IMG/VR virus record: IMGVR_UViG_3300042691_053485
Location: 120,535 to 184,534 of that record
Source of the DNA: a virus
Strand: one strand, 5' to 3'
DNA length: 64,000 bases
The position numbers and the translations under genes were made by a program. The notes beneath the pieces are model-generated. The model was not told the origin of the DNA, searched no databases, and saw only the letters and a program-made list of their open reading frames with translations. This document shows, one piece after another, positions 6,401 to 49,597 of the stretch; within the stretch, counting starts at the first letter, position 1; every line of letters starts with the position of its first letter.

Positions 6401-7465
6401 TACATTTCCGGAGAATTTTCTACCTACGGAATAAATTGTATAGTCACCAAAAGAGTTGTCGATATTTTGACACCCGAATTGCTCACCGTAATAGCTCTCA
6501 ACAACATCAATGATTTCATGCTGAACAATATCAACGGTCTTGTGAGTGAAGATTGGATATGACGCATCCTTTCCAATAAGATATTCTAATCCATATTGGA
6601 GATTTATTCCCATTTTGTTGCAAAATGTGAAGAAGTTAAAAAAGAATTTATAACCTAATCCACCAAACCCATACTTTCCATCACGCCAAGATGAATCATT
6701 TCGATAAAATGATTCAAAGAAGTAGTCAAGTAAATCGGCGGCTATTTCAGTAGGAATAGCATCACTTTTAACCGAAGTAGTTTGAACTTCTTTATATTCT
6801 GAAGCTTCAATGGGGCTGACATCTTTATCATCACGAATAAAAATATCGGGGTCTGACGGTAAAACATTACATCTTGTAATATCTTTCGTTTGAGGGTCAA
6901 TAGTTATACCCCAATCTTTAAACATCAGATTAATTTTCTCCCAAGTTGCCTTGAAATTTTCCAGCGTCAAGTTATTTACCTTGACTAAAAAACCAAGACC
7001 ATCACCACCAAAGGAGTCCCAAACTGCTTTTACAAACGGTAAACTTTTGCCACTTAGGATTTTTTTCACATAGAGCTTAGCACTTGTTATATCGGAAGCC
7101 TTCCCCCTCTCAATCAGAGAGGAAAATGTATCTACGTCAAAATAGATATATCCCGATGGAAACTGGACTTTTTTCAGCTCTCGTTTTTCTTCAACAAAGC
7201 AATTCCATGTTACAACCCGGCATTGTGTGCTTTTGACGTGGTTATATTCATTTCTTTCAACAAATTCAAAAGCATTATGCCTCCAAACCCTGTCTTTGTG
7301 GACAAGGTTGGAGTTTTGTTTTCCCCCGAGTTTGGGGTCTGACTTAGCAAACTGTATTTTTTTTTCTTGGGGATTGTTTTGGATGTATTGTAATGCCTCC
7401 TCAATAGTGAAACTTCCGGATGGCTTAGACGACCTGTCTAGGGATGAAAAGTGGCTTATACGCAT
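3428..7465 (-). CDS. primase-helicase fusion: BT4734/VirE_N-like N-terminal domain plus SF2 helicase
   Basis: N-terminal YIYFDVD, WDSFGGDGLG and KDITRCNVLPSDPDIFI. Walker A GNTGQGKTT, Walker B FFDEEH and VICTSVVVEGVNI (motif V). 1345 aa. Confidence 0.75.
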   Translation of the reverse strand: MRISHFSSLDRSSKPSGSFTIEEALQYIQNNPQEKKIQFAKSDPKLGGKQNSNLVHKDRVWRHNAFEFVERNEYNHVKSTQCRVVTWNCFVEEKRELKKVQFPSGYIYFDVDTFSSLIERGKASDITSAKLYVKKILSGKSLPFVKAVWDSFGGDGLGFLVKVNNLTLENFKATWEKINLMFKDWGITIDPQTKDITRCNVLPSDPDIFIRDDKDVSPIEASEYKEVQTTSVKSDAIPTEIAADLLDYFFESFYRNDSSWRDGKYGFGGLGYKFFFNFFTFCNKMGINLQYGLEYLIGKDASYPIFTHKTVDIVQHEIIDVVESYYGEQFGCQNIDNSFGDYTIYSVGRKFSGNVKMYLSILYADIFGYPNISEQDKVKKIAIKAKEAGILRNELLDFLSKGQETSKEVYKIAKEIYGDTYYHFGILRAITETGVKNRLSSFESWAIENSYKLIRVDSFVGKMNETMAEIISNSQSIFGGLSQANFIETLIYILRNSKHLGIIKEASCEFLKSLKDEFDQYFEFSNTVAYKQRQGVEDMFYEYLDDIAKYVYTLDAWRFGVRIVKILTPEKIRERYNIKKEYFLERGQYINQIGLERANNQIVWGNTGQGKTTWICEPQQGSRSIILVPIIPLLKGIQIGYKASVFYRDKKNVQEGDDLIVCTYSSFPNLLKIMKKWENVKIEDYDLFFDEEHNLAVSSNPEFRGFELNYILDNIHLFKTVNFLTGTMFPVLHPALSNFEIVRTNWKQTPEKICTPIRYDNLFVAVEQLLSRNGKNMIYLQNKKEDGQLGSLIDFLELKGWNKERILLLNADQKESEGFNYLIENELVQDSYDIVICTSVVVEGVNIYNSDFKTVHFLTPESAINMEQFVNRLRDVYTKGNKVESMIYIYKPIDKPEEVDTDHVDVIEIQKKLIKTAKEGLELFSRAYTSGDSISLKSSMKMFSQQIFGKSALYRNNNGIWEVDYLSIANMAYQEEKNYAAKNLEFMKILLNEYNWVFKDEIVIAEKLDVDDKSYLDTSKAERKEQNIAFALSILDDIEVEGEDTCVSKVEDSNLKEVESLEKPQLQVTLRAKVKYLVNSMSFEDALTLMRDWVSNHKLSDRIWTKIARQITVQVSLALGVNKKNKDSSSKFAKKMFDWYKELRKQEVKAETNIYLSPKELSSRVSSITGETENPIGVLKEYFDLEERLEGDSIHYRMAGIKIVNEISTFTNHIMKWGAEMLESKRAVTNEELAKKINKIRSKLPILSSYPLSTRNAMRLIHDYFTFVRVGAKSVKGKKTNTYSITALSPEELSEITITPLRRINLLEKHDDDLTDSEIYEKYATEIFSDLNYHATMSLDGIMAQ

Positions 7466-7525
7466 GAATCTGCAATGGATTTACAGTTATAAATAAGCCT
7501 ATAACAATCAAAAATCAAAAAAAGT

Positions 7526-7948
7526 TTACTTTATGAAAACAATTTTATCAACCCTCATAAATTCCTTGAGTTGGTCGATTGTATTTTTAGTTCCTGATTT
7601 TTTTAACATAAATGTGTTGAGTTTGTTAGTCCTCACCACAGCCCAAAGTTCATCTCCTGTTGAATCAACACCTGACTCGTCAGGAACGCGATAGTAAACA
7701 TGACTACCTTGGTCATGTGCATATTTATGTCCCTTGTCAACCACAAAGCGATGAATCAAAACGCCGTATGAGAGTGATGGGGTGAAATGCTTATTTTTTA
7801 TATATTGAACCTTATCCATTATTTCAGCATATTCATCAGGGCTTAACTCAAGCTTGTCAAGCCGACTTTTTAATCGTTCATTGAAATGTTGTGTTGGATA
7901 TGCTTCATCGACAAGATGTTTAAATTCTTCAGAGATAAGGATTCTCAT
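7526..7948 (-). CDS. hypothetical protein with ISE leader (putative virion-internal)
   Basis: Likely start is ATG 7948 (MRILISEEFKHLVDE), with ATATTTATA on the minus strand at 7961-7969. Confidence 0.7.
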   Translation of the reverse strand: MRILISEEFKHLVDEAYPTQHFNERLKSRLDKLELSPDEYAEIMDKVQYIKNKHFTPSLSYGVLIHRFVVDKGHKYAHDQGSHVYYRVPDESGVDSTGDELWAVVRTNKLNTFMLKKSGTKNTIDQLKEFMRVDKIVFIK

Positions 7949-7977
7949 ATTTATTTTTAATATAAATATTTGGAAAT

Positions 7978-8010
7978 AAAAAAAGCCGGGCATGTCCCGG
8001 CTTTTTTTTT
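7978..8010. terminator. bidirectional intrinsic terminator
   Basis: AAAAGCCGGG-catgt-CCCGGCTTTTTTTTT. Confidence 0.85.
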
Positions 8011-8037
8011 CACTTGATTAATAATTACAATATTTCG

Positions 8038-8110
8038 TATAAGTGACAGGACTCGAACCTGCGACCACTGGCTCCCAAAACCAGAGTTCTACCAACTGAA
8101 CTACACCTAT
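8038..8110 (-). tRNA. tRNA-Pro (TGG), CCA not encoded
   Basis: Acceptor ATAGGTG/CACTTAT, anticodon arm CTGGT-TTTGGGA-GCCAG, T loop GTTCGAGTC. Confidence 0.92.
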
Positions 8111-8119
8111 ATATAAGTA

Positions 8120-8244
8120 CCGTTCTCAAAAACTTGTACAAATTTGTACATGGGTAGTTTTTGTTCCTAATTCATCGACAGGCTGTGCACTGAAAAGTGT
8201 CGAACTCCCATCTCCAAAGGCTGTCACGGTGGAACTCACCGCCA
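8120..8244 (-). ncRNA. orphan TnpB omegaRNA scaffold / IS607-type right end
   Basis: 125-nt ungapped match (108/125 identical by manual alignment) to 50748-50872 at the 3' end of tnpB; ends in TTTTTGAGAACGG; no tnpB adjacent. Confidence 0.85.
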
Positions 8245-8436
8245 TTTTGCATTTGTACAACATTGTTAGATTTTATTTTGACGCTTGACTTTGGTTTTCA
8301 GTACTTTGTCAGAAAATTTGTCGTTTGTTGCACTAATATTCAGGCTTTACTTCAAAAAGCCTACAATATATATCTACTAACACAGATTTGTTTGAGAAAG
8401 TTCCATAATAGATAGAAATTTTTCAACAGTTGTACC
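8120..8436 (-). mobile_element. putative non-autonomous IS607-like derivative inserted at a GG in the tRNA-Leu 3' end
   Basis: Both inferred junctions read GG|TAC (8435-8436 and 8120-8121). The right end is the omegaRNA copy. There is a weak degenerate tnpB-5'-like trace (GTAGGCTTT...GAAGTAAAG) near 8340-8365. Confidence 0.5.
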
Positions 8437-8512
8437 CCCGAAGCGACTCGAACGCTCAATGGAACCGGTTCTAAGCCGGGTGGCTGTGCCAATTTGCCTC
8501 ATCCACAGGGGC
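8433..8512 (-). tRNA. tRNA-Leu (TAG), atypical cloverleaf
   Basis: Acceptor GCCCCTG/CGGGGGT, anticodon loop CTTAGAA, T arm GAGCG-TTCGAGT-CGCTT. Has a 7-nt acceptor-D linker and only a 6-nt variable region. Confidence 0.75.
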
Positions 8513-8521
8513 ATTTGTAAA

Positions 8522-8962
8522 CTACAAAGTTTGTGCCAACTTCATCGCCTCTTTAATTGCCTCAAGTTGGGTGTGATGAACTGTTATTTTTCCTGACAAA
8601 ATATCATCAACAGCTATTAATCTGATAATTGAAAATTCAGGGTACTCAACACCATCTTGAGTAAAAAAGCTATTACATTTTAAGTTAATCGGTTCAACTT
8701 CAGTAACACAAAGAAATGGGACAAGCTCTTTATTTCGTCCCTTGTATTTCCTTGGAGTTAAATGGTAAACATCAGAAGAATCTATAAAGTTCCTTGGAAT
8801 ATTAGATTCTTCATATAATTCTCTTAAAGCAGCCTGTATATTGTTCTCACTCTCATCTTTTCGCCCCTTTGGAATAGACCAAACAGTTGAATTTGGCGGC
8901 GCCCCAAGAACAATTTTATTTTCAGGTTTAAAATAAACAATAAATCCACATGAAGTTTCCAT
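8522..8962 (-). CDS. NUDIX hydrolase
   Basis: Nudix box PKGRKDESENNIQAALRELYEESNI. Confidence 0.9.
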   Translation of the reverse strand: METSCGFIVYFKPENKIVLGAPPNSTVWSIPKGRKDESENNIQAALRELYEESNIPRNFIDSSDVYHLTPRKYKGRNKELVPFLCVTEVEPINLKCNSFFTQDGVEYPEFSIIRLIAVDDILSGKITVHHTQLEAIKEAMKLAQTL

Positions 8963-9049
8963 ATTTTCTTTAGAAGCTTAAACAACAAAATCCCTTAAAA
9001 AGTTTAATTACCACTTACAATTAAATATCTTAACAAAAAGGCTAAACAG

Positions 9050-9057
9050 ATATTTAT
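9050..9057 (+). promoter_or_regulatory. putative late promoter motif ATATTTAT
   Basis: 8 nt upstream of the baseplate gene start at 9066. Confidence 0.55.
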
Positions 9058-9065
9058 GAGAAAAA

Positions 9066-10889
9066 ATGCAGAAGAAGATTAACTATTATACTAGAGATTT
9101 TGCAGGTATTAGAGGTGAACTTATAAATTTCACAAGAAAGCATTTTCCTGAAACATATACCGAATTTGATGATGCTTCGATTGGGATGCTGCTTCTCGAA
9201 TTAAATGCCGCCGTTGGGGATATGTTATCGTTCAATATTGACCGTGTTGCACAAGAAAACCTTATTGAGCATGCACAAGAAAAAAGGTCGATAATGGCAC
9301 TTGCTAGGACATTCGGCTTAAAAATCCCATTTAGAAGACCCTCAATCACAATTTGTGACTTTAGTGTTGAAGTTCCTGTAAATGGTGACTCCTTCGACCT
9401 TTCCTATGCCCCGCTGATTGTTAGGGGTGCTGAAGTCGTCGGTGGAGGACAATCATTTGAAGCATTATACGATATTGATTTTTCATCACCGTTCAATACC
9501 CAAGGGCTTCCAAATCGGACTATAATTCCAAATGTCGATGGTGCAGGTCGTATCAACTCTTATACTTTAACAAAAAGAGAGCTAGTGGTCGCAGGAAAAA
9601 CAAAATTCTTCAAAAGACCAATAACTTCATCTGATGTTAAACCTTTCTTTTCAATAGATTTACCGGATTCAGATGTTCTTTCTGTTGAAAGTATAATTTC
9701 TTTAGAGGGAGTAAATTATGAATCCGTTCCGACACTTGCACAACAAACTGACCCTGATAACCTTTGGTATGCAGTAAACTCATTGGCTGAAAGTAAAATA
9801 TTTTTCGAGCAGCCATTGCAACCTTCAGATAAACGCGGGGTTTTAGTTGGTAAATGGGAGAGTGTATCAAGAAGATTTATTTGGGAATATTCAGATAAGG
9901 GATTTGTTACAGTTCGATTTGGTAACGGAGTTCAAGACACGAGCTCGTCATCAGAGTACCTCACTGACTCTGATGCTTTTTTAGCCCAAATTCAAAACTA
10001 TGTTAATGACAGTTCTTTAGGGGATGTTCCAAAGGCTAATACGACGATGTTTATTAAATATCGAGTTGGTGGAGGAACATCAAGCATCGTTGGGGCAAAT
10101 ACCTTGACTCGAATGGGCAATTTCACTATCTTGGTTGGCGGGCAAAACACAAGTACAAATCAACGTGTAAAGGGTTCACTAACGGTTAACAATGTTCTTC
10201 CTAGTTTTGGAGGCTCAGATGCACCCTCAGTTGAAGAATTGAGAAATCTCACGAAATATAATTTTGCCGCACAAAACCGCTGTGTGCTATTAAAGGATTA
10301 TTATAGCCGAATTTACTTGATGGATGGAAAGTTCGGCGTTCCATACAAAGCATCTGTATCAAAGGTAGAAAACAAAGTTGAAATCAGTGTTGTAGGGTTA
10401 GATGAATCGGGTAAATTATCTAACACATCAACAAAAACAATGAAAGACAACATTTCTAACTATCTTGAACAATATAAAAGCCCCAATGATTACATAAGTG
10501 TGAAAGACGGAAAAATTTTAAATATCGGATTCGACTTTGACTTATTTATTGACCCTGCATTCAGTCGAAATGAAATAGCAGCAGCAGTGGTAAGTGAAAC
10601 AAATTCATTTATTCAAGAGCAAAACTTAATAATGGGGCAAGACATTTATCTATCCTCTCTTATGGAAAGAATCAATAATATTGGTGGTGTATTAAATATT
10701 GTTTCTTTCAGAGTGTATAATAAGGTCGGGCAAGGATTATATTCTTTAAACAAAATAGGGCAGCCTTTAACAAATTCTGTAACAGGTGAGATTGACTTGA
10801 TGGGTAAAAATGCTGTATTTGCTGCCTACGATGAAATTTTTGAGATAAAATATCCTGAAAAGGACATAAGAGTTAGATTCCAAGTGTAA
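9066..10889 (+). CDS. baseplate wedge subunit (T4 gp6 / baseplate J-like)
   Basis: N-terminal RDFAGIRGELINF...GMLLLEL, VRFGNG, YRVGGG, GGSDAPSVEELR and QNRCV motifs. Confidence 0.85.
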   Translation: MQKKINYYTRDFAGIRGELINFTRKHFPETYTEFDDASIGMLLLELNAAVGDMLSFNIDRVAQENLIEHAQEKRSIMALARTFGLKIPFRRPSITICDFSVEVPVNGDSFDLSYAPLIVRGAEVVGGGQSFEALYDIDFSSPFNTQGLPNRTIIPNVDGAGRINSYTLTKRELVVAGKTKFFKRPITSSDVKPFFSIDLPDSDVLSVESIISLEGVNYESVPTLAQQTDPDNLWYAVNSLAESKIFFEQPLQPSDKRGVLVGKWESVSRRFIWEYSDKGFVTVRFGNGVQDTSSSSEYLTDSDAFLAQIQNYVNDSSLGDVPKANTTMFIKYRVGGGTSSIVGANTLTRMGNFTILVGGQNTSTNQRVKGSLTVNNVLPSFGGSDAPSVEELRNLTKYNFAAQNRCVLLKDYYSRIYLMDGKFGVPYKASVSKVENKVEISVVGLDESGKLSNTSTKTMKDNISNYLEQYKSPNDYISVKDGKILNIGFDFDLFIDPAFSRNEIAAAVVSETNSFIQEQNLIMGQDIYLSSLMERINNIGGVLNIVSFRVYNKVGQGLYSLNKIGQPLTNSVTGEIDLMGKNAVFAAYDEIFEIKYPEKDIRVRFQV

Positions 10890-49304: not shown

Positions 49305-49481
49305 ATGAATTACGAAGCAAAAACAAATAGAGGTCGGCAAGGATTTTCTTCAACTAATGCTAGACGTTATGCGAAGAAGTCGAAATCAAAAGCGGAGCGA
49401 ATAACTATAAAATCAGAGCTTAAAACATTCCTGAAAACAGGAATTGAGCCTTTAAGCTTTAAATCGCCTAAAAAAGGCTAG
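49305..49481 (+). CDS. small basic protein (58 aa), 3' end probably altered by the TnpB element insertion
   Basis: Manual translation MNYEAKTNRGRQGFSSTNARRYAKKSKSKAERITIKSELKTFLKTGIEPLSFKSPKKG. Confidence 0.6.
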   Translation: MNYEAKTNRGRQGFSSTNARRYAKKSKSKAERITIKSELKTFLKTGIEPLSFKSPKKG

Positions 49482-49597
49482 CAGCAGCTAAAGAATATTT
49501 GAACAAAGTGTAACATTTCTAACCATTGGCATATTAATTGCCATACAAGGTATAAGTTTTTTTTAGTATTGCTGCATAGCTGATAGATAAGTAGAAA

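Follow-up and report, generated by a model that had tools for sequence, protein, structure and literature searches.

Standalone mobilised omegaRNAs that lie beside effector loci have been shown to work in trans with compatible effectors (Altae-Tran et al. 2021, in the summary of that work given in PMC10691335). In the IS200/IS605 family, gene-less derivatives termed PATEs often encode omegaRNAs that would need a TnpB from elsewhere (PMC10055086). Experiments on IS607 have demonstrated a GG core dinucleotide and have shown that TnpB cuts the donor site once it is rejoined (10.1101/2023.11.20.567912).

The locus described here lies in a large phage. The window that we analysed, a stretch of 64,000 nucleotides, corresponds to positions 120535-184534 of a 184.5-kb IMG/VR virus record that is rated 68% complete; coordinates refer to this window unless they are given as genome positions or carry the name of another locus. 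The core of the locus is a 315-nt element (8434-8120, minus strand), whose scaffold at 8120..8244 (minus strand) is referred to below as the orphan. Everything around the orphan is carried by the minus strand, i.e., a NUDIX gene, a tRNA-like sequence, the element itself, a tRNA-Pro, a hairpin and an ORF of 155 aa, arranged as follows:

8962-8522, minus strand: NUDIX gene, assigned by domain annotation
8432..8512, minus strand: tRNA-like sequence, resembling a decayed tRNA-Leu(UAG), whose 3' acceptor strand gives the GG of the left junction
8351..8434, minus strand: left end of the mini-element, beginning directly after GG (8436-8435)
8245..8350, minus strand: internal stretch of ~106 nt with no homology detectable by blastn or tblastn
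8120..8244, minus strand: omegaRNA scaffold and right end, terminating in CGG, with 108/125 identity to 50748-50872
8104..8119, minus strand: would-be 16-nt guide, TACTTATATATAGGTG, made up of a 9-nt spacer and the first 7 nt of tRNA-Pro
8037..8110, minus strand: tRNA-Pro (UGG), confirmed by ARAGORN and by the Rfam tRNA model (66.3 bits)
7983..8011, no strand assigned: G+C-rich hairpin between A and T runs, read from the sequence as a likely bidirectional terminator after tRNA-Pro
beyond the hairpin at 8011-7983, minus strand: ORF of 155 aa from the ORF list, function unassigned

None of the neighbouring genes (the NUDIX gene, tRNA-Pro and the 155-aa ORF) is an effector. A TnpB-like reading frame is absent from 8240-8440, both in the ORF list and in a tblastn search with TnpB, which returned nothing at E<=100. 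For the internal stretch, 8245..8350, blastn (word size 7) gave no significant match in any of the fetched loci or elsewhere in the genome, and neither did tblastn with TnpB. Two short ORFs, neither of them gene-like, were found inside the mini-element, at 8197-8415 (plus strand) and 8126-8263 (minus strand); the latter, of 45 codons, contains the retained last ~32 codons of tnpB, which overlap the scaffold. A simple terminator scanner did not list the hairpin at 8011-7983, whose stem is probably lengthened by the flanking A and T runs. Near the element, no promoter motif of the sigma-70 type or of the Bacteroidota type (TAnnTTTG) was recognised.

We put at about 0.75 the probability that this feature is a non-autonomous miniature IS607-family TnpB element, which has lost tnpA and tnpB and has kept a left end together with a complete omegaRNA right end. 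The identity of the element, taken separately, is highly probable, and a present-day activity in trans would, to judge from the sequence, be rather doubtful. Homology is found at the right end and, more weakly, at the left end, the junctions are GG, the covarying fold is essentially intact, the architecture is a repeated one, and three intact TnpBs are encoded in the same record. Like the standalone omegaRNAs summarised in PMC10691335, the orphan is a guide-RNA locus without an effector or a transposase, in a genome where effector-bearing loci carry a similar scaffold. In contrast to them, as far as that summary describes them, it is located in a large phage, belongs to an IS607-type lineage, is 12-14% diverged, abuts a tRNA gene and is known from its sequence alone.

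The initial annotation had reported that the scaffold aligns without gaps to the 3' end of a tnpB gene although no tnpB is adjacent to it. This alignment was reproduced: 8244-8120 (minus strand) matches 50748-50872 at 108 of 125 positions (86.4%; BLAST E 1e-38 within the genome), and 50748-50872 comprises the last 62 nt of the tnpB gene of the window and the next 63 nt. The observation is therefore correct as to the sequence, and the match far exceeds what chance would give. The annotation had counted on a single phage TnpB, but the record has three related tnpB copies and a fourth that is unrelated. Four copies of the scaffold are present in the whole record, three of them at the 3' ends of intact tnpB genes and the fourth being the orphan. 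The tnpB copies with a related scaffold, and the element that carries the one inside the window, are located as follows:

genome 41936-43186: tnpB with related scaffold, 416 aa
genome 70310-71560: tnpB with related scaffold, 416 aa
genome 170132-171343: tnpB with related scaffold, 403 aa
49478..50872, plus strand: tnpB-only IS607-type element in the window, with its left end at 49478-49597, tnpB at 49598-50809 and the omegaRNA at 50748-50872

All three of these TnpBs are intact, and their scaffolds are 86-88% identical to the orphan (12-14% diverged). The TnpB of the window shows the Pfam domains OrfB_IS605, TNB and HTH. It matches the TnpB of the ISDra2 TnpB-omegaRNA structures (PDB 8BF8, 8EXA, 8H1J) with an E of 3e-62, and its catalytic D, E, D positions are aligned to D, E, D; the scaffold of about 125 nt that overlaps the 3' end of tnpB is a further common trait. 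Nevertheless, ISDra2 is an IS605-type (Y1) element, unlike the phage elements, and the likeness rests on the protein match and the scaffold size. TldRs, the nuclease-dead TnpB-derived repressors with fixed guides (PMC10705468), are also comparable in their use of a TnpB-type guide RNA, the target of which could be a host or phage gene. The phage TnpBs, however, keep all catalytic residues, and within the record the flank of the orphan is the sole match to its guide.

The fourth tnpB of the record (genome 11205-12398, outside the window) encodes 397 aa that share only 21% identity with the other three, and its 3' region is not related to theirs. On account of both traits it was rejected as the cognate partner of the orphan, and by its divergence it is to be regarded as a separate TnpB lineage in the same phage. 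No transposase or Resolvase-domain (serine recombinase) gene was found in the phage record, at its 68% completeness.

The closest relatives of the phage elements, from IMG/VR and JGI metagenomes, have TnpBs that are 61-73% identical. In two of them, L023 and L024, a 199-aa TnpA with MerR-HTH and Resolvase domains (Resolvase E 1e-19) is located directly upstream of tnpB, and because of this serine recombinase we assign the lineage to the IS607 type. With the PATEs, as they are described in PMC10055086, the orphan element shares its miniature form: a left end is joined to a right end, and the latter encodes an omegaRNA for which another element would have to supply the TnpB. PATEs are moved by a Y1 (HUH) transposase, which recognises terminal hairpins on single-stranded DNA, whereas the relatives of the orphan have a serine recombinase and GG junctions. 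The orphan as a strict PATE was discarded, since its full-length relatives carry a serine recombinase and not a Y1 transposase. The IStron of Clostridium botulinum (10.1101/2023.11.20.567912) is similar in the GG core at both junctions, in the MerR-HTH plus Resolvase TnpA of the full-length relatives and in the guide taken from the right flank. Unlike the IStron, the orphan element has no intron, no tnpA and no tnpB, and the motif adjoining the left end is AAAGG or GGGGG here and TGGG there.

Both junctions of the orphan element read GG|TAC, at 8436-8432 and 8121-8117, as had been annotated, and GG is also found at the junctions of all three tnpB copies and of the mini-elements L022, L028 and L031 described below. 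The first ~85 nt of the element (8434-8351) align collinearly with the left end of L023, and the alignment starts 3-5 nt after GG in both; the match is a weak one, with a score of 20, which was matched by 4 of 5000 shuffles and by 10 of 5000 windows drawn at random from the phage genome. A profile HMM built from seven left ends of the family found no match in the orphan element. When 8434-8245 (188 nt after GG) was compared with the left ends that the tnpB copies of the phage itself carry, the similarity was not significant under two scoring schemes. When the element is taken out, the 3' end of the tRNA-like sequence comes to lie 7 nt from tRNA-Pro. Based on the L023-like start, the GG at both junctions, the identical GGTAC ends and the 7-nt spacing on removal, we read 8434-8120 as one insertion of 315 nt. 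The derivation of the omegaRNA scaffold from the right end of an IS607-type element located at GG, proposed in the initial annotation, agrees with the 108/125 identity and the GG|TAC junctions.

A pattern scan of JGI metagenomes yielded 14 scaffolds, four of which have no tnpB within 1.5 kb upstream. Three of the tnpB-less copies, all GG-flanked, carry the longer omegaRNA variant of the tnpB element L021:

L022:2105-2400: tnpB-less copy
L028:6740-7042: tnpB-less copy
L031:12-260: tnpB-less copy

These are three copies of one element of ~300 nt, in which the left end of L021 is fused to its omegaRNA, and two of them are located on the same 103-kb contig. GG is present at all three left junctions and at both of the right junctions that fall inside the fetched sequence (L022 and L028). 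The L031 copy has an additional insertion of ~30 nt in the first hairpin. In a further tnpB-less copy, L026, the scaffold is 99% identical to that of the tnpB-linked L019; the other standalone copies are much nearer to a tnpB-linked partner than the orphan is (86-88%). The orphan and the tnpB-less relatives all become similar to the tnpB-linked copies from one common point onwards, a TGGCGG with which the scaffold begins. By this comparison, the whole scaffold persists in the tnpB-less copies, and not only the ends that a recombinase would be expected to need. That the retained part starts at this base in three independent tnpB-less relatives hints that selection, or a deletion mechanism, may preserve the guide RNA itself.

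Two of the relatives are also placed close to tRNA sequences. The L026 scaffold (L026:6951-7074, minus strand; flanks 6684-7330) is located inside a decayed tRNA-Met, within an array of co-oriented tRNAs in which a promoter-like repeated cassette with a TAnnTTTG motif precedes each tRNA. Its right flank, i.e., the would-be guide, equals the neighbouring intact tRNA-Met from the anticodon loop on, at 16 of 17 bases, and in that intact tRNA-Met the stretch that matches the flank comes after GG. Among species-representative genomes, the sole match was L033:1263-1480 on the chromosome of Arachidicoccus ginsenosidivorans. The right flank of L033 is the reverse complement of the 5' half of a tRNA, and ARAGORN calls no whole tRNA there; this element may also have landed in a tRNA gene.

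Twelve distinct members of the scaffold family were aligned: four from the phage record (the orphan and the three tnpB-linked copies), seven from metagenomes and one from A. ginsenosidivorans. In the four-helix structure derived from this alignment, 99.1% of the cells are paired and 11 pairs are changed on both sides; the covariation score was reached by no shuffle, and with partners slid by 1-3 columns at most 43% of the cells pair. A small 3' hairpin given by RNAalifold (columns 130-141) was dropped in favour of the covarying long-range P4 helix. The orphan retains 29 of the 31 consensus pairs (P1 6/6, P2 12/12, P3 4/6 and P4 7/7). A covariance model gave it 136 bits, compared with 132-144 bits for the tnpB-linked phage copies, which is a rough check since the orphan was in the training alignment. 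The initial annotation had described a stem that becomes CACT/AGTG with its structure preserved. The CACT/AGTG pairing is real, but the two basal pairs of this variable 6-bp hairpin, P3, are broken in the orphan (G-A and A-C), which makes it unique among the 12 members. P5, the hairpin nearest to the guide, is labile in the family as a whole. The 3' strand of P5 is unmoved in the orphan and has found a new 5' partner, which results in the perfect 16-nt palindrome TGTACAAATTTGTACA that had been annotated and leaves a 6-nt bulge.

The origin of the compensatory changes can be read from the comparison with L023, to whose scaffold the orphan is 83% identical and the phage tnpB-linked scaffolds only 78-81%. 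Unlike the phage copies, the orphan shares the L023 state at column 21, at pair 27/86 and at pairs 46/66 and 47/65. Measured against the tnpB copies, pair 27/86 (U-A versus C-G) is compensatory as well, a third case that the initial annotation had missed. Since the orphan states at 46/66 and 47/65 equal those of L023, an outgroup element, we assign the changes at these pairs to the branch of the tnpB copies; on the most economical reading, the double changes would have arisen on the branch to the tnpB-bearing copies, and the orphan would be a sister lineage with the older state. The two compensatory pairs that had been annotated in the orphan are thus ancestral and are no evidence of selection on it, and the caveat attached to them, that the covariation could have been inherited, proved to be justified.

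Five substitutions are unique to the orphan. One of them breaks a P3 pair and the other four cluster in P5, where the two at columns 107-108 make the palindrome perfect. We presume that the P5 cluster fits a single template-switch (quasi-palindrome correction) mutation in the orphan. Two of the five fall in columns that are invariant among the other 11 members (hypergeometric P = 0.39, a test that has no power with five changes). Because the unique substitutions are only five, constraint on the orphan cannot be shown.

It comes close to an even chance that the element is an inert relic, i.e., a dead insertion with a fossil left end and right end, which no longer moves, provides no guide and looks intact only through its youth. 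With five unique substitutions and a P value of 0.39, its intactness needs no selection, and in P3, besides the pair broken by a unique change, a second pair is mismatched; nevertheless, P3 is damaged only at its base, the other helices are whole, and the covariance model scores the orphan as high as the tnpB-linked copies. The record contains no transposase, the resident TnpB elements have a different left flank, a tRNA in need of processing overlaps the guide and no promoter was found. On the other hand, the element has the orientation of a transcription unit with a likely terminator at its end, and the three independent tnpB-less relatives retain exactly the part from the first base of the scaffold on, which suggests that the RNA persists and not just a recombinase site.

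If the feature is, as we prefer, a miniature IS607-family element, a serine recombinase would have inserted it, and its source would be a lineage that is sister to the present tnpB elements of the phage. Its RNA would belong to the minus-strand transcript of the NUDIX gene, the tRNA-like sequence and tRNA-Pro, unless transcription starts in the left end of the element itself. Given an RNA with a long enough 3' flank, a phage TnpB could load it in trans, and the TnpB-RNA complex would cut the element-free allele (GG, then the flank), after which recombination would restore the element. The cutting of element-free alleles is the usual selfish retention mechanism of such transposons. Several traits make us doubt that the element is currently active: the scaffold is 12-14% diverged, P3 is broken at its base, P5 has been rebuilt, the left flank reads GGGGG, no promoter was recognised and maturation of tRNA-Pro would leave a guide of 9 nt.

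The scaffold ends 9 nt short of tRNA-Pro, and a 16-nt guide therefore enters the tRNA by 7 nt, in agreement with the initial annotation, which had the guide running into the 5' end of tRNA-Pro. The difference in the inferred TAMs to which it had drawn attention is also present: the left flank is AAAGG at all three tnpB copies and GGGGG at the orphan, and across the family only the GG is constant at this position. With up to 3 mismatches and next to GG, the orphan guide has no second match elsewhere in the phage record, and no secondary target of any of the four guides was found in the record under the same limits.

The sequence upstream of the element had been annotated as a tRNA-Leu that forms a tRNA cluster with tRNA-Pro and that excision would leave intact, 7 nt from tRNA-Pro. 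The spacing is as stated, but 8512-8432 is not a recognisable tRNA: it was called neither by ARAGORN, by default or with -ps, nor by the Rfam tRNA model, even at E<=10. It surfaces only with ARAGORN -ps60/-ps80, with an aberrant anticodon arm. Read from the sequence, it has a good acceptor stem, a T arm and a CTTAGAA loop, carries 5 extra nt ahead of the D stem and has no long variable arm. Only two recognisable tRNAs are present in the whole 184.5-kb record, and tRNA-Pro is the sole confirmed tRNA at this locus.

According to the model proposed in the initial annotation, the orphan provides a second guide for the phage TnpB, made in one transcript with the tRNAs and released by their processing, and this guide destroys the element-free alleles of co-infecting relatives in a competition between phages. 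We regard this as highly unlikely. The orphan does share its strand with the tRNA-like sequence and with tRNA-Pro, after which a likely terminator follows; related intact TnpBs are present, and L026 is likewise part of a tRNA array and has the orientation of its tRNAs. However, TnpB cleavage needs a guide of about 12-16 nt. RNase P cutting at the 5' end of tRNA-Pro (8110) would leave 9 nt, so that tRNA processing conflicts with guide function and would hinder the guide that it was thought to help. In addition, the upstream "tRNA" is not recognisable as such, the covariation cited for the model is inherited and the left flank is unlike that of the tnpB copies.

The empty allele among related phages that this model predicts was not found, nor was any relative of the locus, in INPHARED, IMG/VR or the protein collection. 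A search of INPHARED phages with 7400-9300 returned tRNA-Pro only, in unrelated phages, and a search of IMG/VR with the NUDIX and 155-aa neighbour proteins gave no relative of the locus. Both neighbour proteins had only self-matches in a collection of 5.8 billion proteins. An exact look-up of the NUDIX protein led to three short ENA contigs, all identical and all filled. Four kinds of pattern (orphan-specific, family, reconstructed empty site and tRNA-Pro) gave 0 matches each in IMG/VR. The orphan element is single-copy in the 184.5-kb record, and as to signs of its mobility, no further copy and no empty site appeared in the collections searched.

It is hardly probable that a full tnpB-only copy lost its tnpB by internal deletion in situ, so that a solo right end was left beside unrelated sequence and a mobile mini-element never existed. 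In favour of such a deletion, 8434-8245 has no similarity to the tnpB left ends of the phage, the element is present in a single copy and the final ~32 residues of TnpB can still be read in the 45-codon frame (8263-8126). Against it, the initial ~85 nt resemble the L023 left end at an equal distance from GG, the scaffold shows the states of the outgroup and did not descend from the resident copies, the relatives show ready-made left-end-plus-omegaRNA elements in several copies, and the endpoint of the deletion would need to hit the first base of the scaffold exactly.

As a miniature IS607-family element, the feature would be the serine-recombinase counterpart of the gene-less omegaRNA-bearing IS605 elements, inside a phage with three intact TnpB genes. 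The concept of a standalone guide is already published, and the value of the locus is that of a clean example with a corrected annotation. If loading in trans were true, a phage TnpB would have at least 4 guides, and the locus would offer a defined site for testing whether TnpB drives homing when phages co-infect. A more far-reaching version, which we hold to be unlikely, is that guide-only parasites of the IS607 lineage sit in phage tRNA arrays and borrow both tRNA-operon transcription and a resident TnpB; in mixed infection, the orphan RNA would then guide cleavage by one of the three TnpBs at the element-free tRNA locus of related phages. L026, with its position in a decayed tRNA-Met and its 16/17 flank match, would fit such a parasite. 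Were this true, the locus and linked markers would be converted to the carrier allele, as with homing endonucleases in T4-like phages.

The three tnpB copies of the record have a common left end right after AAAGG and a right end that closes at CGG. When the GG junctions of the tnpB element in the window are joined, the clipped end of the upstream ORF, PKKG*, becomes PKKGWID*, and the restoration of this longer ORF supports the boundaries of the element. The ORF in question is a 58-aa phage ORF (49305-49481 with 50873-50885), which the tnpB element clips and to which rejoining adds three codons. The tnpB of the window stops 13 codons short of its two paralogues, as a C-to-T change makes a TAG (50800-50809); in the overlapping omegaRNA, this TAG is located just 3' of the P3 hairpin. 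Right after the element, at 50893-50920, there are three tandem 8-nt units (AAAACATG), which encode MKNMKNMKN, the start of an ORF of 242 aa with a lipoprotein-like signal sequence.
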